Shown: positions 7,544 through 40,983, counted from the first letter of the stretch. The stretch: DNA of 64,000 bases from Patescibacteria group bacterium (GCA_028714475.1 JAQTNC010000001.1:86678-150677); one strand, 5' to 3'. Numbers and translations: made by a program. The notes: generated by a model not told the origin, from the letters alone.

Positions 7544-8464
7544 TCAATAGGTCACGTCCAGCACCGAAATCTCCGGTCGGCTGAAGAGGCGGGCGCGGGG
7601 GCCGGACTCGCCGACGCCGGGCGTGATGAAAAGTTGGGTGCGGCCGTAGCGGAACAGGCCTTGGTCGTATTCCTGACCGATGGAGATCGGCAATCGCGCA
7701 ATCGGACCGACGAGCGGCAGGCGGATCTGCCCACCGTGCGTGTGGCCGGCGATGAGCAATTGGACATTGTTGACCTCGGCCGTCCGAACCGCGTCCGGGC
7801 TGTGGGCGACGACGATGCGAAAAGCATTATCCGGCACGCCAGCGAGCGCCTTGTCCCAATCGTCGTGGCCGTATTCCATGTCGTCAATGCCGATGAGCCA
7901 GGTCTGCGGGTGATCCTCGACGACATCCGGCAGCTGAATGGCGCGATTCACGAGGGTCTTCACGCCGACCGAGCCGAGCCGCTCGCGCACCGTGACCGCG
8001 CCGACGCGATAGTCGTAATTGCCGAGCACGGCCCAAACGCCGAGCGGCGCGCGGAAGCCGCGGAATGCGGAAAAGGCCGCCGTGCCGGCTGCGGTTGTGA
8101 CCAGATCGCCGTCCAAGATGATCAAATCAGGTTGCGCGTCGTTAGTCGCGCGAACGACCTTTTCGGCCCAGGCGAGTCCCTTGTACGGGCCGAAATGCAT
8201 GTCGCTCACGATGGCAACGCGCAGATGTGCGCCGGTTTCGCCGAGCGCCACCGGATATTCCTTGACGGTCAGGAAACGCGGCGCGATGAAACTGCCATAC
8301 ACAACCGCGAGCCAGAAGACGACGGCGAGGACGGCGAAGAAAGGCCGCATGGAGCCAAGCGCCAACTTCTTCCTCTTCACCCACAACTCAACAACATAAA
8401 GTGGCACCGCCGCGATGATGACGGCGATGACCGCGTCGAATTGCCAACCAGGGAAGAGGGGCAT
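7544..8464 (-). CDS. metallophosphoesterase (calcineurin-like, YkuE-type) with N-terminal TM helices
   Basis: DMHFGP, GDLV, GNYD, GHTHGGQ motifs. Confidence 0.85.
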   Translation of the reverse strand: MPLFPGWQFDAVIAVIIAAVPLYVVELWVKRKKLALGSMRPFFAVLAVVFWLAVVYGSFIAPRFLTVKEYPVALGETGAHLRVAIVSDMHFGPYKGLAWAEKVVRATNDAQPDLIILDGDLVTTAAGTAAFSAFRGFRAPLGVWAVLGNYDYRVGAVTVRERLGSVGVKTLVNRAIQLPDVVEDHPQTWLIGIDDMEYGHDDWDKALAGVPDNAFRIVVAHSPDAVRTAEVNNVQLLIAGHTHGGQIRLPLVGPIARLPISIGQEYDQGLFRYGRTQLFITPGVGESGPRARLFSRPEISVLDVTY

Positions 8465-8471
8465 GGCTTGC

Positions 8472-8549
8472 GTAGCGGCAGGGTTTACCCCTGCACCACC
8501 ATAATTCAGACTCTTGTTACGGTGGTGGCGGGATAAACCCGCCCGCTAC
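8472..8549. repeat. family 2 REP-like hairpin (GTAGCGG...CCGCTAC), ~29-bp imperfect stem
   Basis: gtagcggcagggtttacccctgcaccacc / ggtggtggcgggataaacccgcccgctac. Confidence 0.75.
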
Positions 8550-8554
8550 AATAT

Positions 8555-9691
<1,137 letters not shown>

Positions 9692-10479: not shown

Positions 10480-11904
10480 CTACAGACTAACCTCGATGGC
10501 CGGACGCTCGTGGGCCGGGAAGACGGTCATGCCGCCGCGCGACCGCAGTTCGGCGGTCACGCTGTCGAGAGCGGCTGGACTGCCGTGGGAGACCACGACG
10601 ACCTCGGCTCCCAAGCCATGAATCCCGTCGATCGTCCGCCGACGGCCGTTATGCCCGCCGAGGCGATAGTGTTCGACGTCGCAACGAAGCGACATCGTCC
10701 TGACTACCGTCTCGCGTTGGCTGTGCCGCTGGCTGAACGTGACGTCCGGATTCCGGCCCAACTCGTCTCGGAGTTTGGCCGCCTTGAGGATCTTGTCCCC
10801 GTCCGTCCCTTCAGCCACGTAGCCGGTGAAAGCCACGGTGGCTCCCGGAACCGGCAAGAAACGCTGACGCCACCAGGTGCCGCAGCCGCCTGGGCCACCC
10901 ATGCCGGGCGGCACGATGGCGATGAGGCTGCGGACGGACTCGGCCACGATTTGGCGCATCTGACGATCCTCGATGAGCTTGACGCCCTTCAGACTGACTT
11001 GCCGGTCCCGGTTGCACCAGGAATAGCTAGGGTCGGTCATCATCGGTGCCAAACGGGCAGCGGTGCCGTCGAGGAAAACCTGGCCGCTCTGGGTGATGCC
11101 GCGCCGTGCCAGTTCGCCGGCCACGGTGCCGCCGCGGTGCAGGGAGAAGACGTAGATCAACATCTTGCCTCCGCGCCGAAGCGTCTCGTCGCACTTGTCC
11201 GCCAGCCGGTCCATCTCGGCCCGCCAGTTCGGCGGCTCCGCTTCGGTCGCGCCGTAGGTGCAGTCGGTGCCGGGCACGACATCCGGACGCCATTCGTCCG
11301 GAGTGGGCACGGCGCCCAGGATGCTGGGCTGATCGTGATCACACACGTCACCCGTGTAGAGCACGTTGCACCCATCGATCCGGAACGTGAACGAACACGC
11401 TCCGCCAATGTGACCGGTTGGCTGAACCCAAGTGTCGAGACCGCCAATCTCGTGCTGGCCAGGCCGTTCGATGGCCTGCAGACGGCTCAAGACGTCGATG
11501 ACGTCTCTCCTTCCGTAGGGCTTGGCGAGACTGTCCGTGTCGCTGTCCCAGGTTTCGATCTCCCGGTCGAGCAGGTACTCGAGCACCTGAACCGTCGGGG
11601 TCGTGGCGTAGATGAGCGCGTCCGGCGCAAGGTGCGGCGCCAAACCCGGCAACCCGCCGACGTGATCGTTGTGCGCGTGCGTCAGGTAGACGGAGCCGAT
11701 CTTCCGACCGTCACCGAACGCCGAGAAATCCGGCGTCCTGAAGGTCTCTTCCGAACCGCGACGGTCGATGACCGAACCGCAGTCCACGACGATGCGCCTG
11801 GCAATGCTGCCACCGCGATTGACGACGTCCAGCAACCCACACGAAGGCTCGATCTCGTTGCGTCCCGTGTGCCGACCCAGCCGATGCAATCTTAATGTAG
11901 CCAC
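10480..11904 (-). CDS. MBL-fold metallo-hydrolase (possibly beta-CASP/RNase J-like)
   Basis: LTHAHNDHVGG (HxHxDH) motif, 474 aa; GC looks higher than neighbouring genes. Confidence 0.7.
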   Translation of the reverse strand: MATLRLHRLGRHTGRNEIEPSCGLLDVVNRGGSIARRIVVDCGSVIDRRGSEETFRTPDFSAFGDGRKIGSVYLTHAHNDHVGGLPGLAPHLAPDALIYATTPTVQVLEYLLDREIETWDSDTDSLAKPYGRRDVIDVLSRLQAIERPGQHEIGGLDTWVQPTGHIGGACSFTFRIDGCNVLYTGDVCDHDQPSILGAVPTPDEWRPDVVPGTDCTYGATEAEPPNWRAEMDRLADKCDETLRRGGKMLIYVFSLHRGGTVAGELARRGITQSGQVFLDGTAARLAPMMTDPSYSWCNRDRQVSLKGVKLIEDRQMRQIVAESVRSLIAIVPPGMGGPGGCGTWWRQRFLPVPGATVAFTGYVAEGTDGDKILKAAKLRDELGRNPDVTFSQRHSQRETVVRTMSLRCDVEHYRLGGHNGRRRTIDGIHGLGAEVVVVSHGSPAALDSVTAELRSRGGMTVFPAHERPAIEVSL

Positions 11905-32657: not shown

Positions 32658-33416
32658 CTAGCGGCTCATCTCGTCCTCGCACAACTTGGATTGCCGCTCC
32701 TCAAGCGCCGACTTATACGCTGGCACCGCGTACGGCACCCAGCCCTTCGATGCGTCAGCCAAATCAATGGCGCGCGCCTGACCGGAATTCCACAAGCTGG
32801 CGCACGGCCCGGGCGAGTTATCCACGCCGGTAACCCAGAAGATCAGCTTCGATCCCTGCCGACCCAAGATGGACCAGACCGCCGATTCGCCCGGCTGGTC
32901 CGCGGTCTTTCCTGTTTCCACATACATCTCCCGCAACTCGCCGGTGCTCAACCGATAAGCGTAGAGGCGGTTCGTAACCACTGTCGGCTTGGAAAGGTCC
33001 TTGGTGGTAGTCACCAGATAAACGACGTCGGCATCCGTCGGATGCACCCAAGCCGCGTTATAAATGCGCTCGCCGTTACCCTTGATGGTCGCGAGCGCGG
33101 CTGCGGCCGGTTCGACCTTGCGCCCGTCAGGCAGGACAATCGTCACCCGACCCTCGGCATCATAATCGGCTCGCCCGTAAGCATCCTCAACGAACACCTC
33201 GTCGGTCGCCGGAAGCGCACCCAAACCTTCCGGTGCGGTCGGCTCGGCCAGCGGCTCCACGGACGCCGAAGTCTGAACCTTGAGCGCACTGACTTCAGCG
33301 CGCAGACCGCTCACGGTGGCGTCACTTGCCGACTTGCTGGCCAGGTACCCGCCGCTTACGCCCGCGAGGAGCGCCACGACCGCCACGGCCACGAGAACTG
33401 CTTTGGATTGATTCAT
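32658..33416 (-). CDS. hypothetical secreted/membrane-anchored protein
   Basis: start set at Met16 preceding a signal/anchor helix. Confidence 0.5.
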   Translation of the reverse strand: MNQSKAVLVAVAVVALLAGVSGGYLASKSASDATVSGLRAEVSALKVQTSASVEPLAEPTAPEGLGALPATDEVFVEDAYGRADYDAEGRVTIVLPDGRKVEPAAAALATIKGNGERIYNAAWVHPTDADVVYLVTTTKDLSKPTVVTNRLYAYRLSTGELREMYVETGKTADQPGESAVWSILGRQGSKLIFWVTGVDNSPGPCASLWNSGQARAIDLADASKGWVPYAVPAYKSALEERQSKLCEDEMSR

Positions 33417-33636
33417 ATCAATGCAAAAGAAATAATGGCTAAGATAACAAAAAGATAGCACAAAAATCTCTTTTTGTCAACCGTTGTTTTGCATAAAGAA
33501 AACGGGGAGGCCGAAGGCGCCTCCCCGCCGGCGAACGCAAGTGCCCGCCACGGCTTGAACCCATTGACCGCTGACCCCAATCGACGCCAGCGGGTTCGGG
33601 ATTGAGCAGGGGCGCGACAATGTCAAAATAATTATT

Positions 33637-33690: not shown

Positions 33691-34197
33691 TCAACGATCG
33701 GCGTCATCGCGATCCAGAGCGCGATGACAGAACCCGAGGCCCCGATCGACCATCTGCAACACGCGCCAAAGGGCATCGACGCGATCGGTCCGGGCAATCT
33801 TCCGTGGTGTGACCTCGGCCATGGCCTTTCGGCAATCCCGAAACACCGTTGGCCATATCACGCGCGACACGGGCATTTTCTGCCGCTCCCAGAGACGGAT
33901 ATCGGTCCGGGCGTGAAGCGACTCGATCCTAGAAAAGAGCACGCCGAACTGCTCCGGTACGCCTTCGAACTCATCGTGGTAGGCGTTCAGGCAGGCCTGC
34001 CAGGACTCATGCCACCGCTCGAACTGGGACCAGAAGGTGGACACTTCGCGCAGCAATCGCCGACCGTCCGCCCGCCACCATGACCGGAACGAAAAAGCCA
34101 CCACCACCAGCACGACAACAACAAACAAATAAACCACGGCAATTATCTCCCAGCGCCCGAAGGCAAAAAGCCCCGGAAAATGACCTTCTGTCATCAT
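33691..34197 (-). CDS. hypothetical membrane-anchored protein
   Basis: ATGATG at 34197 preceding a TM helix (ORF starts at TTG 34242). Confidence 0.45.
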   Translation of the reverse strand: MMTEGHFPGLFAFGRWEIIAVVYLFVVVVLVVVAFSFRSWWRADGRRLLREVSTFWSQFERWHESWQACLNAYHDEFEGVPEQFGVLFSRIESLHARTDIRLWERQKMPVSRVIWPTVFRDCRKAMAEVTPRKIARTDRVDALWRVLQMVDRGLGFCHRALDRDDADR

Positions 34198-34286
34198 GGC
34201 CGCGCTGGGCGTATTCGTCAAATCTGGCCGAACGAAACGCAAAAAAATACCATATTTTAAATAAAAAACTGCTGTTTAGTCGCCTC

Positions 34287-34315
34287 TTGCCAACCTTCCG
34301 TTTATAATGTATATT
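34287..34315 (+). promoter_or_regulatory. putative promoter (TTGCCA-17-TATATT) upstream of secE
   Basis: seen in sequence in an AT-rich spacer. Confidence 0.3.
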
Positions 34316-34425
34316 ATGAACGAACAATAGATTCGCCGCCCGCGAGGGGCGGTTTTAAGACCCAAGAAAATCTTCATCTAGCCAAGACCCGGCCGCCATG
34401 GCGCCGCTTCAATACCCAGAACCAT

Positions 34426-34614
34426 ATGGCTAACAAAATAGTCACTTACGTCCAGGAGTGCCGCGAGGAACTCAAGAAGGTCACTTGGCCTTCACGCGAA
34501 CAGGTCATCCGCGACACGCTGATCGTGCTCGGTCTCTCCATCGCCACGGCCGCCTTTTTTGGCCTGATTGATTTCGGCATGATGTCGGCGTTCCGACAGT
34601 ACCTGCAGGTCTAG
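34426..34614 (+). CDS. secE: preprotein translocase subunit SecE
   Basis: 62-aa single-TM protein immediately upstream of nusG. Confidence 0.85.
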   Translation: MANKIVTYVQECREELKKVTWPSREQVIRDTLIVLGLSIATAAFFGLIDFGMMSAFRQYLQV

Positions 34615-34661
34615 ACCGGCACCCTACTCACCAAAGTCCCTTCATCGCCCTGTACCGAACG

Positions 34662-35222
34662 GTGCAAGGCAAGCCTATGCCAAAGCAAACAACGAACGTC
34701 GGTCGCCGCTGGTACGCCATCCACACCTACTCCGGCTACGAGGAGAACGTGGCGCACAACCTCAAACAGCGCATCGAGTCCATGGACATGCAGGACAAGA
34801 TCTTCAACATTCTCATCCCGAAGGAGAAGAAGATCAAGATCAAGAACGGCAAGCGTAAGGTGGTCGAGGAGAAGATCTTCCCCGGCTACGTGATGGTCGA
34901 GATGGTCGTCACCGACGATTCGTGGTACGTCGTGCGCAACACGCCGAACGTCACCGGCTTCATCGGCACCGGCAACACGCCGACGCCGGTCGCCGAGGAC
35001 GAAATCAAGGCCCTGCAGAAGCGCATGGGCGTCGAGGAGCCGGAATACAAGATCAACGTCGAGGTCAATGCGCCGGTCAAAATCACCGACGGTCCGTTCA
35101 AGAATTTCGAGGGCAAGGTCGCGGAAATCGACGAGTCGCGCGGCAAGATCAAGGTGCTCGTTTCCATGTTCGGCCGCGAAACGCCGGTGGAACTCGACTT
35201 CCTGCAGGTGAAGAAAATATAG
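34662..35222 (+). CDS. nusG: transcription termination/antitermination factor NusG
   Basis: NGN and KOW domains (FPGYVMVEM, VRVLDGPF-type KOW). Confidence 0.92.
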   Translation: MQGKPMPKQTTNVGRRWYAIHTYSGYEENVAHNLKQRIESMDMQDKIFNILIPKEKKIKIKNGKRKVVEEKIFPGYVMVEMVVTDDSWYVVRNTPNVTGFIGTGNTPTPVAEDEIKALQKRMGVEEPEYKINVEVNAPVKITDGPFKNFEGKVAEIDESRGKIKVLVSMFGRETPVELDFLQVKKI

Positions 35223-35238
35223 CCGTCAACCAATCATC

Positions 35239-35270
35239 AAAAGGCCCGCCACCCGGCGGGCTTTTGGTTT
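35239..35270 (+). terminator. rho-independent terminator after nusG
   Basis: gcccgcc-accc-ggcgggc followed by TTTTGGTTT; near-identical to the terminator after rplA. Confidence 0.8.
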
Positions 35271-35297
35271 GACGAAGCAAGGCGAGTGATTCATATT

Positions 35298-35362
35298 TAT
35301 AGTGCTGAAGATGGGGGCGCTGAAGTACTGAAGAAAAAACCTTCAGCACTTCAGCACTCCAG
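35298..35362. repeat. CAGCACT-family palindromic hairpin
   Basis: agtgctgaag...gctgaagtactgaag-aaaaaacc-ttcagcacttcagcactccagc. Confidence 0.65.
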
Positions 35363-35378
35363 CAATTCCCCACTCTCT

Positions 35379-35873
35379 ATGCTCCGCTTCCTCTGGCTCA
35401 AAGACGCCGCCGACTGCCCCACGCCCGCCGATGGCTTTTTGCCGCCTGCGGAAATCTCCGCCGCTGACCGTGAGCGCGTGCTCGCCCTGCTCGGCCAACT
35501 CACCGAACGCCCGCCGACGGAAATCGACTTGGCCGACGTGGCAGCCGCGCCGGACACGTTTATCGTCGCGGCAGTTGCCAATGACGAGCCCGGCCTGCCG
35601 GAAGGCATCGTCGGCATGGCGACGCTCATCCGCCTCCGCAAGCTCACCGGCTTGAGCGGCCACGTCGAGGACGTGGTCGTGGACGAGGCCTGCCGCGGCC
35701 GCGGCTTGGCCAAGACGCTCATGGGGCATCTGCACGACGCCGGCCGCGCACTCAAACTGAAGCACATCAACCTCACGAGCCAACCGCAACGCGAAACGGC
35801 CAACCGCCTCTACCAACAGCTCGGCTACGAGCGGCGCGACACCAACGCTTACCGGCTAACGCTGATACCATGA
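35379..35873 (+). CDS. GNAT family N-acetyltransferase
   Basis: acetyl-CoA binding motif region (VDEACRGRGLAKTLM); ATG at 35379 (ORF track starts at GTG 35286, inside the repeat). Confidence 0.75.
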   Translation: MLRFLWLKDAADCPTPADGFLPPAEISAADRERVLALLGQLTERPPTEIDLADVAAAPDTFIVAAVANDEPGLPEGIVGMATLIRLRKLTGLSGHVEDVVVDEACRGRGLAKTLMGHLHDAGRALKLKHINLTSQPQRETANRLYQQLGYERRDTNAYRLTLIP

Positions 35874-36196
35874 CCATCAACCCCGCGCTCCCGCTCATCG
35901 TCTTTGGCGGACTGATCCTCACCGCCGGCGACATCATCATGAAAACCTGGGTCGCCAAAAACAATTGGTCGTTTTTTGTCATCGGTTTCCTGGCTTACGC
36001 GGTCGGCTTGATTTGCCTCGCCTTCAGTTTCCGCCACCAGAACATCGCCACTGCCTCGCTGGCGATGGTGCTCTTCAACATCATCACGCTGGCGGCCGTG
36101 AGTCGCTTCTGGTTTCATGAGCCGCTTACCGCCTGGCGTTCGGTCGGCCTGCTCATCGGCTTGGTCGCGGTCGTGGTGCTGGAGCTGGCCGGATGA
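35870..36196 (+). CDS. small 4-TM transporter of the SMR/DMT (EamA-like) superfamily
   Basis: 108 aa, four TM helices, ATGA overlap with the GNAT gene. Confidence 0.6.
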   Translation: MTINPALPLIVFGGLILTAGDIIMKTWVAKNNWSFFVIGFLAYAVGLICLAFSFRHQNIATASLAMVLFNIITLAAVSRFWFHEPLTAWRSVGLLIGLVAVVVLELAG

Positions 36197-36286
36197 CGGG
36201 TCAACAGCAGGCTCACGGCCCGTCTTGACCCGGGATTTTTTTTATTCTAGACTTTGCCCAGACCTTTACCTGAAGGGAGTCATAAC

Positions 36287-36832
36287 ATGACTGACCCCAA
36301 AGATATTCCTGGCTGGAGAACGGCTTGCGGCGCCCGCGCCAGATTGGTGCGTGCGGTCAGGACGTTCTGCGTCTGTCAGGCGAGAACATGGCAAACCCTG
36401 CCGCTCAAGGCTCTCCTGGCGACCGACCTGACCCTGCCTCAGCCGGATCCGGCTTGCATCGAATTGGGGCAGGAGTTGAGCCTCCGGCGCCTGACCTATC
36501 ACTTCGGCTTCTGGCCCATTCGCGCGACGCTGGACCAAGAGCGCCACTACCACGCCTACGTGGACTGTCTGACCGGCGAACTGGTCGACCCGAGCCTGCT
36601 TCACGCCCGACAGGAGATCGTTCCTGCCCACGACGACACCGTCGGCCTGCTCGCCTGGCACATGGATGAGCTCGATGCCGCCGCCATTGCCGCCGCGCTG
36701 GACGCGGAAGGCGAACGGCTGTTCCGAGTTCGTAGCAGGGCGAGGTGCCTTCAGCGAGCCACGCAGGGTAAGTTGAATCTCGGCGCGCATATCCGACGCC
36801 GCTGCGCCTGGCCTCCGCTCATTGCGACCTGA
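36287..36832 (+). CDS. hypothetical protein
   Basis: GAAGGGAG SD 7 nt before ATG 36287; terminator downstream. Confidence 0.5.
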   Translation: MTDPKDIPGWRTACGARARLVRAVRTFCVCQARTWQTLPLKALLATDLTLPQPDPACIELGQELSLRRLTYHFGFWPIRATLDQERHYHAYVDCLTGELVDPSLLHARQEIVPAHDDTVGLLAWHMDELDAAAIAAALDAEGERLFRVRSRARCLQRATQGKLNLGAHIRRRCAWPPLIAT

Positions 36833-36856
36833 AAGCCGTCGTCCCCCTTGGACGAC

Positions 36857-36892
36857 CGCCGCGTGGACACCCTGTGTCCGCGCGGTTTTTGT
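36857..36892 (+). terminator. rho-independent terminator
   Basis: ccgcgtggacac-cctg-tgtccgcgcgg followed by TTTTTGTT. Confidence 0.7.
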
Positions 36893-37193
36893 TCACCTCC
36901 GCCAAATACCCCGGGCGCCAGCCCGGGATTCCTGACGCGTGAATCCCCCGAAGCCCGGATGGCGTAGGGGGCAGAGGGCTGCGGTGAATGAAATATGAAG
37001 GGGCCTTAGATACCCCGGCCGTGAGGCCGGGGAGTCTTCATTTTGCGATAATCAATTGACATTAACCGTTCGTGGATGCAAACACTAACTGACGAACGCA
37101 ACCTTGACTTATCGACCGCCCCTCGGCGTTCGTTTATATTTCCAACAAAAAACCGCCCCCGGAGAAACCCGGCGACGGTGATTGACACGCGGT

Positions 37194-37889
37194 TCAGCGG
37201 CCGCGACAAGAACCCAAGAGACTCCAGGCGGCAATCGGCGTGAGATAGGCGGCGGCGTAGACCAAGCCGACCAGGACGGCCGCCGGAAACGCGACGACGA
37301 ATCCCCAATGGAGAGCCAGGCCGCACACCATGAGCAGGCCGAATAACAGCCCGCGCGACAGAGCGTGTAGCGGCAGTAACCGCCACAGGCCACGGTTGTC
37401 ATGGCCACGCAGGTGAAGCAGGATGTCCTTGACCGCCAGCAACAACGCGAATACGGCTACGATAGCCGCCAAGCCGACCAAACCGCCCACTTCCGCGCCT
37501 ATCGCCGAGCTGATGGACAGGATCATCGCCGAAAAGGCCATAACCGGCATCAGTTCGCCCGGCCCAATATTCTCGAGGGCGTACTCCCAAGTCCATGACC
37601 GCCGCAGCGACCGGATGTAGCCGATGGCGAGCCAGAGGCAGAGGGCCGACGCCCAGATGTCGTGCCGACCGAGGATACCGCCGTAGGGCAAGACGTACTT
37701 GGCACCCGGCCACAGCGGAGCTGACTCGACCAGGCGTTCGTGGCCGCCGACAAGCAGGGTCACCCGCAGCGTGAGCCACATGAGCAGGGCCGTGAGCCCC
37801 GCCCAAAAGCCGGCCGATTCGACCACCCGCTTCGCCACGACCAAAGACGCAATCAAACGACTGTTCGAACGGTTACGCCGAGAAATCAT
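37194..37889 (-). CDS. hypothetical polytopic membrane protein
   Basis: start at Met19 with GAAAGGGGAA SD. Confidence 0.55.
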   Translation of the reverse strand: MISRRNRSNSRLIASLVVAKRVVESAGFWAGLTALLMWLTLRVTLLVGGHERLVESAPLWPGAKYVLPYGGILGRHDIWASALCLWLAIGYIRSLRRSWTWEYALENIGPGELMPVMAFSAMILSISSAIGAEVGGLVGLAAIVAVFALLLAVKDILLHLRGHDNRGLWRLLPLHALSRGLLFGLLMVCGLALHWGFVVAFPAAVLVGLVYAAAYLTPIAAWSLLGSCRGR

Positions 37890-38086
37890 CGGGTTCCCCT
37901 TTCGCTTTTTTCCGCGCCAATCGGCGTCGGACTTTGATGACAATGATCCAGACCGAAATAATTTTCGGGCATCAGCTCGGCAAAGTCAAACGCGGCGCGT
38001 CGCAGAAGCGAAAAACCCCTACAAAAAAACCGACGCGACACCCCGGAGGCAGGTGCCGCGTCTTGAACGAAGTCGATCTTCTTGTC

Positions 38087-38653
38087 TTAGCCCGCTCGGC
38101 GGATGCCCGAACTGGTCAGCTCGAGTTGCATTTCCGCCATGAGCCTCTGAACCTCGTCGAGCCTTGAAACAGGGCACCGCTCGGAACCAGGGCCAGGGAC
38201 CGTGAGCGCGGCTACCAGCAGGGCTTGCCGGCGCACGATTTCCAGTTCCTGCTCCAACGCCTGCCTTTGACGCAACTCGTTCACCCAGGCGCTGCTCAAA
38301 TGAGTGATCTCGGTCGTGGCATCATCCAGCTCTCGTGTCAGCCTTTCGGTCTCCAAGGAACGCTGGCCAACCTCCCTGACCACGTCCATCAGGATGGATG
38401 ACGTCGGTTCAGCCGGCGGCGGCCTTCTTGAAATGCGCCGCACGCCCGAACGCTCGACGCGGTTCGACAGCCCCTCGGCCTCGAGCCGGATCTGCCGCCA
38501 GCACCAGAGCGCGGCCAGGACGTTGTATGCGACCGTCAGCGAGCCAACCGCCCTGACCTGATCCTGATTGCCGAACACGAACGTGGTGAGCAGCGCTACG
38601 ACCGTCAGGCCGGTGACGGCCAAAATGCAGGGAGCAACTCTCTTATCGACCAT
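38087..38653 (-). CDS. hypothetical membrane-anchored coiled-coil protein
   Basis: start set at internal ATG 38653 with GGAGG 5-6 nt upstream. Confidence 0.5.
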   Translation of the reverse strand: MVDKRVAPCILAVTGLTVVALLTTFVFGNQDQVRAVGSLTVAYNVLAALWCWRQIRLEAEGLSNRVERSGVRRISRRPPPAEPTSSILMDVVREVGQRSLETERLTRELDDATTEITHLSSAWVNELRQRQALEQELEIVRRQALLVAALTVPGPGSERCPVSRLDEVQRLMAEMQLELTSSGIRRAG

Positions 38654-38739
38654 AAAACCTCCATTGCTGACCAAAATCATAGCATATTTTACCCCTTTTG
38701 TCAAGCCTGACTGCTCATGAAAGACAACCCAAAGCAAGC

Positions 38740-38766
38740 CCCGCCCGCCCTTGCATTTACCTAAAG
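38740..38766 (+). promoter_or_regulatory. putative promoter (TTGCAT-15-TATAAT) for rplK-rplA
   Basis: seen in sequence; ~85-nt leader follows. Confidence 0.4.
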
Positions 38767-38850
38767 CTTCGTATAATATTCCTCCACGTGTCAGGTGCGG
38801 CCATGACGGCCGGCTTCTCACCGAGGCACCCAACAACCAACCAACTGACT

Positions 38851-39273
38851 ATGGCTAAGAAAATCAAGACATTTATCAAGCTGCAGATTCCCGCTGGCAA
38901 GGCGAACCCCGCCCCGCCGGTCGGCCCGGCGCTCGGCCAACACGGCCTGAACATCGCCGAGTTCTGCCAGAAGTTCAACGCCGCGACCGCCGCCCTCGGC
39001 GGTGACATCACGCCGGTCGTCATCACCGTCTACGATGATCGCACCTATACCTTCGTCCTCAAGACCCCGCCGGCCGCGGAACTCATCAAGAAGGCCGCCG
39101 GCATCACGAGCGGCTCGAAAAAGCCGCTGACCGAGAAGGTCGGCACCATCACCAAAGCCCAGCTCAAGGAGATCGCCGAGAAGAAAATGCCTGACTTGAA
39201 CGCCAACGACATCGAAGCCGCGATGAAAATCATCGCCGGCACCGCGCGTCAGATGGGCGTGGAGGTGAAATAA
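38851..39273 (+). CDS. rplK: 50S ribosomal protein L11
   Basis: [19 protein letters not shown] signature. Confidence 0.93.
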
Positions 39274-39274
39274 T

Positions 39275-39299
39275 GTAGCGGGGTAAACCCGCCCGCTAC
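39275..39299. repeat. family 2 minimal hairpin (gtagcgggg-taaaccc-gcccgctac) between rplK and rplA
   Basis: seen in sequence. Confidence 0.6.
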
Positions 39300-39348
39300 G
39301 ATAAATTGTGGGAGGCCCGAATACGGCCGTCCGCACCACGAAAAGCAT

Positions 39349-40029
39349 ATGGCTCACAGCAAGCGCTACAAAGAACTCCTGGCGTCCTACGACGCGAGGA
39401 AATCCTACTCCCCCGCCGAGGCGGTCGAGTTGGTGAAGAAACTCTCGACCACGAAATTCGACAGCTCCGTCGAGGTTCACATCCGCTTGGGCATTGACCC
39501 GAAGAAAAGCGACCAGATGGTGCGCTCCACCGTCGCCCTCCCGCACGGCACCGGCAAGACCAAGAAGGTGGCCGCTTTCGTGAGCGGAGACAAGGAGAAG
39601 GAAGCCAAGGAAGCCGGCGCGGATCTCATCGGCGGCGAGGAGCTCATCGCCAAAATCGCCTCGACCGGCAAGATTGAATTTGACATCGCGGTCGCCACGC
39701 CGGACATGATGCCGAAACTCGCCAAGGTCGCCAAGATCCTCGGCCCGCGCGGCCTCATGCCGAGCCCGAAGAACGATACCGTCACGCCAAACATCAAGAA
39801 AGCGATCGAGGAGATGAAGAAAGGCAAGGTCGCCTTCAAGAGCGACGACACCGGCAACATCCACCAGGCCATCGGCAAGGCGTCGTTCACCGCCGAACAG
39901 CTCGCCGACAACTTCACCGCCTTCATGGAGGCTGTCCGCAAGGCCAAACCGTCGTCCTCGAAGGGCGTATATCTCGTGTCCGTCACCGTCGCCCCGACCA
40001 TGGGCCCGGGCGTGAAGGTCTCTGTTTAG
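39349..40029 (+). CDS. rplA: 50S ribosomal protein L1
   Basis: full-length L1. Confidence 0.93.
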   Translation: MAHSKRYKELLASYDARKSYSPAEAVELVKKLSTTKFDSSVEVHIRLGIDPKKSDQMVRSTVALPHGTGKTKKVAAFVSGDKEKEAKEAGADLIGGEELIAKIASTGKIEFDIAVATPDMMPKLAKVAKILGPRGLMPSPKNDTVTPNIKKAIEEMKKGKVAFKSDDTGNIHQAIGKASFTAEQLADNFTAFMEAVRKAKPSSSKGVYLVSVTVAPTMGPGVKVSV

Positions 40030-40046
40030 CCCACCAACGATAAGAA

Positions 40047-40077
40047 CCGACCCCGCCACCCGGCGGGGTTTTGGTTT
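40047..40077 (+). terminator. rho-independent terminator after rplA
   Basis: ccccgcc-accc-ggcgggg followed by TTTTGGTTT. Confidence 0.8.
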
Positions 40078-40155
40078 CCTGCGGTTATCCACTTGACCGC
40101 TAGGTGTGTCTTTGGCAAATTAACAATCGTTCGTCTTCATCCCCAACCGACACAA

Positions 40156-40548
40156 ATGTCGTCTATGAACAACCTCCGTCCAACCATACTTGCCCTGCTC
40201 GCGCCGATGACCGCCTTGTCCGCGCTGGTCTTGCCGCGCGGAGCAGGCGCCACCGTCATCAACACCGGCCTCGGCTTCGCCCTGAACATCACCACGCCGA
40301 CGCATGACACTATGTACATCATCGTCGGGCTGGGTCGCTTGTTGCTTGGACTCGTGTGTGTCTTCATGGTCATCAACATCGTCCACCAAGCAGTTGAGAT
40401 AAATAATGACGGCGAGCGGACGGAGTCGCTCTCTGCGTCCATTCACTCAATCGTGAACAGCGTCATCTGCATGATTGGCGCCATGATCCTGGCCGGCGTC
40501 CTGCCGTCCGTGGCGGGTGTTGCCGCGCGCTTCGTTGGCCAAGCCTAA
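40156..40548 (+). CDS. hypothetical secreted/membrane protein (signal peptide plus two hydrophobic segments; VirB2/TrbC-pilin-like architecture, speculative)
   Basis: hydrophobicity pattern only. Confidence 0.4.
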   Translation: MSSMNNLRPTILALLAPMTALSALVLPRGAGATVINTGLGFALNITTPTHDTMYIIVGLGRLLLGLVCVFMVINIVHQAVEINNDGERTESLSASIHSIVNSVICMIGAMILAGVLPSVAGVAARFVGQA

Positions 40549-40554
40549 CGGCGT

Positions 40555-40983
40555 ATGCAACTTGCCGTCACCAGAATCGACAAGGACCTGCCGCTCCCGC
40601 GCTACGAGACCGCGGGGGCATGCGCTTTTGACGTACTGGCGCGCATCGAGACGGTCATCCCCCCGAAAACGCTCGGCTTCGTGCCCGGCAACGTCATCGT
40701 CTGCGTGCCCGAAGGCCACGTGCTCATGCTCGCTTCCCGCTCCTCGACGCCGCGCAAAAAGGGTCTGCTCACGCCGCACGGCTTCGGCACGATAGATCAG
40801 GATTACTGCGGGCCGGATGACGAGCTGATCGTCCAGGTCTACAACTTCACCGACGAGCCGGTGACGGTCGCCCGCGGCGAACGCATCGCCCAAGCGCTCA
40901 TCGTCCCGGTCGCCAAATTCGAAATCATCGAGACGCCGCCGAATGCGAGCCGTAGCCGCGGCGGCTTCGGAACGACGGGATAA
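40555..40983 (+). CDS. dut: dUTP diphosphatase
   Basis: AGACAFD and RSSTPRKKG dUTPase motifs. Confidence 0.9.
   Translation: MQLAVTRIDKDLPLPRYETAGACAFDVLARIETVIPPKTLGFVPGNVIVCVPEGHVLMLASRSSTPRKKGLLTPHGFGTIDQDYCGPDDELIVQVYNFTDEPVTVARGERIAQALIVPVAKFEIIETPPNASRSRGGFGTTG

Follow-up and report, generated by a model that had tools for sequence, protein, structure and literature searches.

In Escherichia coli, the secE-nusG operon and the rplKA(JL) operon that follows it are reportedly separate transcription units, as Downing et al. are said to have described in 1990. Hot-spot junctions between core genes hold different accessory genes across strains or lineages. The secE-nusG-rplK-rplA locus itself is highly conserved (PMC7593976, PMC7819879), and L1-interacting RNA, i.e., a stem of 6 to 12 bp with an internal bulge containing a potential G-A pair, is described directly before rplK or rplA (PMC3616713). 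Here we describe this locus in a 64,000-nucleotide (nt) stretch, referred to below as the window, from a metagenome-assembled genome (MAG) of the Patescibacteria (candidate phyla radiation, Uhrbacteria-like; GCA_028714475.1, JAQTNC010000001.1:86678-150677). As in E. coli, the order and strand of secE, nusG, rplK and rplA are conserved, with a predicted terminator after nusG and a promoter-like site and candidate regulatory leader before rplK; unlike in E. coli, 3,628 nt with five unrelated genes lie between nusG and rplK. The predicted terminators that end nusG and rplA are near-identical over 26 nt.

This arrangement is probably the outcome of lineage-specific accretion of small, independently transcribed genes between the secE-nusG and rplK-rplA units, with the terminators copied locally. 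In a high-GC subclade of the Patescibacteria, the junction would already have carried a terminator behind nusG as well as a promoter and leader ahead of rplK, so that DNA placed between them would disturb neither operon and the gap would offer a neutral, insulated place for genes to accumulate. Different lineages would have filled this gap independently with different genes; here, it would have come to hold genes for a GNAT acetyltransferase and a translationally coupled SMR-like protein, one soluble protein and two membrane proteins on the opposite strand, the last three being orphans (ORFans). The hairpin after nusG would insulate nusG from the insert, whereas that after rplA would end the rplKA transcript, and one terminator would have been copied onto the other by a short local event, either gene conversion or template switching, separate from the arrival of the insert.

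The junction between nusG and rplK

We measured the distance between the nusG stop codon and the rplK ATG in 79 Patescibacteria loci holding both genes. The median of this spacer was 80 nt, with 64 loci at or below 200 nt, 12 at 300 nt or more and 3 at 1,000 nt or more; as the 3,628 nt of the window exceed the maximum of 2,465 nt among these relatives, genes were gained here. The premise of the initial annotation, that rplK-rplA normally come directly after nusG, is thus borne out by this synteny comparison as well as by the literature cited above. None of the five insert genes was found by tblastn in 80 related loci, whose NusG proteins are 73 to 90% identical to that of the window, nor did the insert DNA show any similarity to these loci by blastn.

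The closest relatives by NusG, L11 and L1 identity, L001, L004 and L030, are all of high GC and have spacers of 1,597, 2,465 and 227 nt, respectively. In L001 the spacer holds an IS1595-family transposase, in L004 an aldehyde dehydrogenase plus a C39-like peptidase, and L030 has no comparable insert. In another high-GC locus, L079, a 366-nt spacer consists of a terminator, a small open reading frame (ORF) on the minus strand, a promoter and a leader; read from the sequence, this ORF (10620-10765, minus strand) would encode a hydrophobic peptide of about 48 residues behind a GAAAGGAG ribosome-binding site, a minimal occupant of the same junction. More distant relatives carry a ParE toxin, a 23S-rRNA-IVS protein, a PD-(D/E)XK protein (PDDEXK_3) or DUF2809 at this position. 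Such unrelated cargo at one junction indicates that the junction is permissive and recurrently used.

Expanded spacers in all four of L001, L004, L030 and L079 (227 to 2,465 nt) could also be taken to mean that the arrangement is ancestral and that the intervening genes were lost in other lineages. We find this scarcely credible: spacers of at most 200 nt prevail in many Patescibacteria groups, the locus is contiguous across bacterial phyla, the five genes occur in no relative and three of them have no homologue in the databases searched, and the inserts of the relatives are mutually unrelated. The junction is comparable to known hot spots in that a single core junction holds unrelated cargo in different relatives. 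It differs in that the comparison is made between distant lineages, at family level or above, rather than strains, and in that the inserts are very small, lack an integrase or tRNA and consist mostly of ORFans of native composition.

Gene identities were obtained from Pfam and NCBIfam profile searches, and the features of the locus are collected in Table 1. The gene content of the insert is as the initial annotation had described it, with profile searches and helix prediction in agreement, i.e., a GNAT acetyltransferase, an SMR-like protein with four transmembrane helices and a hypothetical protein on the plus strand and two membrane proteins on the minus strand. The only NCBI entries matched by insert proteins are PHT12_00585, PHT12_00590 and PHT12_00595, which belong to a 154-kb contig; exact-sequence look-ups of NusG, with either of two starts, and of L1 returned no record.

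Table 1. Predicted genes and signals of the secE-nusG and rplK-rplA region, with positions counted from the first letter of the window
Feature	Position	Strand	Remarks
secE	34426-34614	+	PF00584, 64.7 bits; TIGR00964, 62.9 bits
nusG	34677-35222	+	TIGR00922, 209 bits; NusG N-terminal and KOW domains; ATG start, GTG at 34662
nusG terminator (predicted intrinsic)	35244-35270	+	26-mer copy 1 at 35245-35270; 7-bp GC stem, ACCC loop, UUUUGGUUU tail; -26 kcal/mol, z -4.9
Promoter-like site of GNAT/SMR-like unit	35269-35297	+	TTGACG-17-CATATT; 9/12 match to consensus, consensus only
Hairpin of CTGAAG/CTTCAG repeats, GNAT 5' region	35319-35355	+	-33 kcal/mol, z -4.6; 0/200 shuffles as stable
GNAT N-acetyltransferase	35379-35873	+	164 residues; PF00583, 52.1 bits (cut-off 20.7)
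SMR/DMT-like membrane protein	35870-36196	+	108 residues; four hydrophobic helices; ATGA start overlaps GNAT stop
Terminator-like hairpin after SMR-like gene	36197-36244	+	U8; overlaps promoter-like site of next gene (36225-36253)
Hypothetical soluble protein, PHT12_00590	36287-36832	+	181 residues; singleton, matches itself alone in a protein database of 5.8 billion sequences
Intrinsic terminator (predicted) of 36287-36832 gene	36858-36896	+	13-bp stem, UUUUUG; -32.1 kcal/mol, z -5.8
Terminator-like hairpin, 3' of memA	37152-37179	-	U6; hairpin weak by z-score
Multi-pass membrane protein (memA), PHT12_00595	37194-37889	-	231 residues; singleton; at least 5 hydrophobic helices
Intrinsic terminator (predicted) of memB	38032-38062	-	12-bp stem, U7; z -4.3
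Single-pass membrane protein (memB)	38087-38653	-	188 residues; singleton; 1 transmembrane helix, long charged helical, coiled-coil-like tail
Promoter-like site of memB	38676-38704	-	TTGACA-17-TATGAT with TG; 11/12, best of the region; divergent from rplK promoter
rplK promoter-like hexamers	38751-38779	+	TTGCAT 38751-38756, TATAAT 38772-38777; read from sequence; spacer 15 nt, or 17 nt to TAATAT
rplK leader stem-loop	38794-38822	+	P1 GGUG/CACC, P2 CGGCC/GGCCG; invariant GCUUCU 3' internal loop, 38813-38818
rplK (L11)	38851-39273	+	TIGR01632, 201.6 bits
Stem-loop before rplA, candidate L1 autoregulatory site	39307-39336	+	GUGGGAGGCC...GGCCGUCCGCAC; 6+4-bp stem, 1x1 A/G internal loop; 13 nt before rplA ATG
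rplA (L1)	39349-40029	+	TIGR01169, 316.8 bits
rplA terminator (predicted intrinsic)	40051-40077	+	26-mer copy 2 at 40052-40077; GC hairpin, UUUUGGUUU; -23 kcal/mol, z -4.1

By predicted promoter-like and terminator-like signals, the five insert genes form four self-contained units on both strands. The first runs from the promoter-like site at 35269 through the GNAT and SMR-like genes to the terminator-like hairpin behind them, and the second, from 36225, comprises the gene of the 181-residue protein and its terminator. On the minus strand, memA has a promoter-like site at 37989-37961 and a weak terminator-like hairpin, and memB is framed by its own promoter-like site and predicted terminator. 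An array of CTGAAG/CTTCAG repeats (35303-35362; three direct and two inverted) without an Rfam match separates the promoter-like site from the GNAT start, and its predicted hairpin could be an operator or attenuator-like element. The 307-nt convergent intergenic region (36887-37193) includes several GC hairpins, among them CCCCGGCCGUGAGGCCGGGG at 37013-37032, and shows a moderate excess of structure over shuffled sequences on either strand (z -2.8 and -2.6); it contains no ORF and has no Rfam match.

Pfam, NCBIfam, PHROG and PADLOC profiles identified none of the five insert genes as an integrase, transposase, relaxase, phage or defence gene, and Pfam showed no mobility or defence gene among ten flanking genes, which extend about 7 kb upstream of nusG and 4.5 kb downstream of rplA. 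PADLOC gave no match; with PHROGs, the GNAT protein matched generic phage acetyltransferase families (E about 1e-9), the other insert genes were unmatched, and one flanking hypothetical protein matched with an E of 0.006, which is at chance level. The 64 kb contain no tRNA, and a search for repeats bracketing the insert itself returned chance-level matches only. The composition of the insert is native: GC is about 0.6 throughout, the G+C content at third codon positions (GC3) of 0.70 to 0.83 lies inside the window range of 0.62 to 0.88, codon-usage z-scores lie between -1.45 and +0.5, and the tetranucleotide distance ranks among the top 7% of 3.5-kb windows, slightly high without being an outlier.

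These data bear on a reading along the lines of the initial annotation, in which a mobile or accessory island would have integrated here and the 26-mers would be attachment-site (att)-like direct repeats resulting from site-specific or homologous recombination. A 26-nt direct repeat does exist, the junction is variable among relatives, with a transposase there in the closest of them, and the tetranucleotide distance is on the high side. However, the 26-mers bracket the insert together with rplK-rplA (4.8 kb) and so are not the ends of an island, which makes the designation of a cassette flanked by twin terminators misleading. The absence of mobility and tRNA genes and of other bracketing repeats, the native composition and codon usage, the distribution of the genes over both strands with separate promoter-like and terminator-like signals, and the finding that the block occurs nowhere else in the searched databases likewise argue against an island, and we consider it very unlikely. 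Altogether, the evidence says that the insert is not a coherent or mobile cassette; of the proposed inserted accessory module, insertion relative to the 79 related loci stands, and the single module gives way to four units.

The GNAT protein, whose start is identical in the gene call on the independently assembled Logan contig L081, has its nearest solved structures among glucosamine-6-phosphate N-acetyltransferase (GNA1)-like enzymes (3fb3, 1.7e-9). A RimI-like identity was rejected, as the TIGR01575 score was only 29 bits against a cut-off of 86.4. This weak match and the proximity of the GNAT gene to rplK and rplA would be the grounds for regarding the insert as functionally tied to its neighbours, for example through a ribosomal-protein acetyltransferase of the RimI/J/L type. 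Such a tie is extremely doubtful, since the best solved relatives lie elsewhere, the gene is coupled to that of a membrane SMR-like protein and not to ribosomal-protein genes, it appears to be shielded by the nusG terminator, with a promoter-like site of its own, and no relative has a GNAT gene here.

The SMR-like protein scored below threshold in Pfam (EamA, 19.9 bits with a cut-off of 28.2; SMR PF00893, 17.0 bits with a cut-off of 23.7) and gave a weak ArnF-like match in NCBIfam. Its structural model, with a predicted local distance difference test (pLDDT) score of 69.8, found EmrE/Gdx as the best PDB folds at a TM score of 0.55, with E-values of only 0.07 to 0.2. In a manual alignment on the LMK/IMK motif, made without a profile, the acidic residue of the first helix is Asp21, about one helical turn from the position held in EmrE by E14, the conserved membrane-embedded Glu of SMR proteins. 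Asp21 is kept in the single homologue (55% identity), which was found in the 5.8 billion-sequence protein database and is encoded on a 909-bp contig, L086, where no GNAT gene adjoins it; hence no conserved GNAT-SMR module can be demonstrated. From sequence, the GNAT enzyme and the coupled SMR/DMT-like protein would fit a role in modifying or exporting a small amine or amino-sugar compound.

Profile searches of the three remaining proteins, which the initial annotation had suggested as a check, returned no family match. The 181-residue protein has no Pfam, NCBIfam, PADLOC, PHROG or PDB match, and its AlphaFold2 model, computed without an alignment, was unusable (pLDDT 39.5). For memA, the protein itself was the sole match in the 5.8 billion-sequence database and no Pfam, NCBIfam, PADLOC or PHROG family was found; for memB, the protein itself was the sole match when 1.84 billion representatives were scanned in full with HMMER.

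The near-identical terminators of nusG and rplA

The nusG terminator was confirmed, as was its near-identity to the hairpin at the rplA end. The two 26-mers share the sequence CCCGCCACCCGGCGGG(N)TTTTGGTTT, in which N is the one differing position, and are thus identical at 25 of 26 positions; none of 100 shuffles gave any match, and there are only two copies in the 64 kb. Both hairpins start 22 nt after TAG stop codons and have the stem CCCGCC/GGCGGG, and the loop (4/4) and the interrupted tail (9/9), a U-tract broken by GG, are identical. At the sole differing position, 17, one copy has C and the other G, and the base just 5' of the 26-mer changes in a complementary way (G versus C), so that both copies keep a seventh base pair. 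This compensation speaks for two functional hairpins. The nusG terminator also scores as a terminator on the minus strand.

A comparison of 974 within-locus pairs of terminator-like hairpins from 85 loci showed that this pair alone had two mismatches or fewer, the next best having four. The other terminators in the window are diverse. In locus L036, a near-identical terminator pair (8464-8489 and 9178-9203; AACCGCCTCAAGCGGTTGTTT...) with 4 mismatches in 26 lies upstream of secE, its members 714 nt apart, so that duplicated terminators may recur in the group. The pair in the window resembles repetitive extragenic palindromic (REP)-like elements and duplicated terminators in that a GC-rich hairpin is found nearly unchanged at two gene 3' ends. 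Unlike REP sequences and bacterial interspersed mosaic elements, it has two copies in 64 kb, proper U-tracts, a position 22 nt after stop codons and no clustered or inverted arrangement.

A metagenome-assembled source and a repeat at the left junction might raise the suspicion of an assembly artefact, i.e., a chimeric join at the shared 26-mer. Contig L081 is 100% identical to the window from 35160 to 36915, spanning the nusG 3' end, the terminator, the GNAT and SMR-like genes and the next gene. Because L081 runs through the left 26-mer copy at 100%, a chimeric join can be discarded for the left junction, although the contig may derive from the same reads. Composition is uniform, and the right junction (38654-38850) has no repeat. 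We therefore regard the chance of an artefact as negligible.

Several observations weigh against accretion with local copying as the history of this locus. Promoter and termination activities are predictions from sequence. The three ORFans have no homologues, and their coding status rests on ORF length, GC3, signals and public annotation. The closest genome, at about 90% NusG and 75 to 79% L11 identity, is too far removed to reveal the order or timing of insertions or whether the genes arrived jointly. As for the terminators, the flanks of the 26-mers are without similarity, and identity ends exactly at the hairpin plus tail. An exact copy of the 23-nt core, covering 23 of the 26 positions, is present in four contigs, three metagenomic and one viral, whose flanks are unrelated and which encode no related proteins; one of the four is 25/26 identical with the tail included. 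Convergence is thus possible. Furthermore, the terminators that follow nusG and rplA in relatives have a common style, a stem followed by UUUYGKUU, and this lowers the information content of the 26-mer match.

The points that concern the terminators, together with the compensated difference in the outer base pair, favour convergence, in which both terminators were selected independently to the same optimal hairpin with no copying; the accretion picture would then be unchanged. On the other side stand the isolation of this pair among the 974, the identity of loop and interrupted tail even though a loop is normally free to vary, the position of the copies on neighbouring operons 4.8 kb apart, and the diversity of the other terminators in the window. 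We hold convergence to be possible, if rather doubtful, and favour a short local copy, which is plausible, as the source of the near-identity. Of the suggestion that duplication or recombination had acted at this site, duplication remains plausible, and recombination that delivered the insert at the terminators does not, as the similarity ends at hairpin and tail. Whether copied or convergent, the repeat is no trace of the insertion event.

Leaders upstream of rplK and rplA

The rplK regulatory region is intact. The initial annotation had placed a promoter for rplK at 38740; promoter-like hexamers are present, at a position corrected to 38751-38777. The consensus scan did not report this site because its spacer to TATAAT is 15 nt. 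Downstream, the leader stem-loop shows a P1-P2-GCUUCU architecture that recurs before rplK in many relatives with wholly different helix sequences, for example in L049 (10552-10594), L053 (10550-10596) and L036 (10559-10603); the GCUUCU leader is also present in L079, L004 and L030. Since a MAFFT alignment, anchored on GCTTCT alone and with variable helix lengths, is unsuited to column-wise covariation, the leader was tested by a descriptor search with shuffled and genome-wide controls. GCTTCT within 110 nt upstream of rplK was observed 24 times in relatives versus 3.0 expected (8-fold), and the P1-P2 architecture surrounded 13 of the 24 sites upstream of rplK compared to 66 of 873 elsewhere (Fisher p = 8e-9). 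No Rfam 15 family matched the whole window at gathering thresholds or positions 34200-40200 at E of 1 or below, and a search with the two short leader regions returned noise only. The GCUUCU stem-loop is thus a candidate Patescibacteria ribosomal-protein leader, as judged from conservation of its predicted fold.

The predicted stem-loop before rplA follows another hairpin (39275-39299) located after the rplK stop codon. Set against the L1-interacting RNA of Fu et al. 2013 (PMC3616713), it is similar in being a stem with an A/G mismatch before rplA, a position reported in Actinobacteria, Chloroflexi and Cyanobacteria, and the second conserved stem-loop, before rplK, adds to the likeness; both are candidate regulatory elements. 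Unlike the L1 sites of that study, the rplK element has a 3' GCUUCU internal loop and not a G-A pair plus unpaired A (PMC3616713).

A second type of rplK leader was noted in relatives within 100 nt upstream of rplK, consisting of GGUUGC(C/U), a hairpin and GG(G/A)AAUCC. It is found in L008, L009, L012, L022, L024, L025, L035, L040, L042, L051, L052, L060, L062, L063, L065, L070, L071 and L078 and may be the classical L1-binding type. The GCUUCU and GGUUGC types appear to be mutually exclusive among loci.

Surrounding genes and meaning of the locus

Neighbours of the locus identified with Pfam include gyrB, a radical-SAM protein, dut and a cytidylate-kinase-like protein, among others. On the 3' side of rplA (40093-40983), the terminator is followed by a small membrane protein, with a signal-peptide-like N terminus and two more helices, and by dut; unlike in E. 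coli, rplJ-rplL are not there. The same pairing of a membrane protein with dut occurs 3' of rplA in L004 (14845-15685), with a dCTP deaminase in between, and dut was found downstream of rplA in many relatives. Directly upstream of secE, two hypothetical membrane-anchored proteins are encoded on the minus strand (32658-33461 and 33691-34242). Both have low codon typicality (z -1.2 and -1.55, respectively) and no significant Pfam, PADLOC or PHROG match. Because small genes that defy annotation are present upstream of secE as well, ORFans between core genes are a general trait of this genome and not confined to the nusG-rplK gap.

In the window, rplK and rplA are 75 nt apart. In relatives (positions in the rplK-rplA interval, e.g., L006 11027-11992, L021 11069-12052, L065 11062-11424 and L078 11227-11592), this gap measures at least 500 nt in 24 of 73. 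Wide gaps usually hold a gene for a membrane protein of 120 to 340 residues with a shared N-terminal motif, ..IRxIYFYLxSLVTL.., which the window lacks. L023 and L036 carry 3.7 to 4.0 kb of extra genes between rplK and rplA.

A bolder set of propositions, which we consider quite unlikely to hold jointly, would make the nusG/rplK boundary of this Patescibacteria subclade a site of recurrent gene gain and possibly of gene birth. The three ORFs would have arisen or diversified in situ in an insulated spacer, the copied terminator would be the footprint of the event that created this insulated niche, and P1-P2-GCUUCU would represent an undescribed, Patescibacteria-specific leader class distinct from the classical L1 site.

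The locus may serve as a calibration case, in which a break in a conserved neighbourhood together with a 26-nt repeat resembles a mobile cassette and looks instead, on closer analysis, like an ordinary case of genes gained by one lineage where two operons meet. Its most reusable by-product is the GCUUCU leader before rplK, which is absent from Rfam and would be of interest for RNA regulation if binding of L1 or L11 were true. For the Patescibacteria, the comparison shows that the junction between secE-nusG and rplKA is permissive and that between rplK and rplA even more so, lineages having filled both with unrelated small genes, which is relevant wherever this locus is used as a synteny anchor or as a contiguity check for MAGs.

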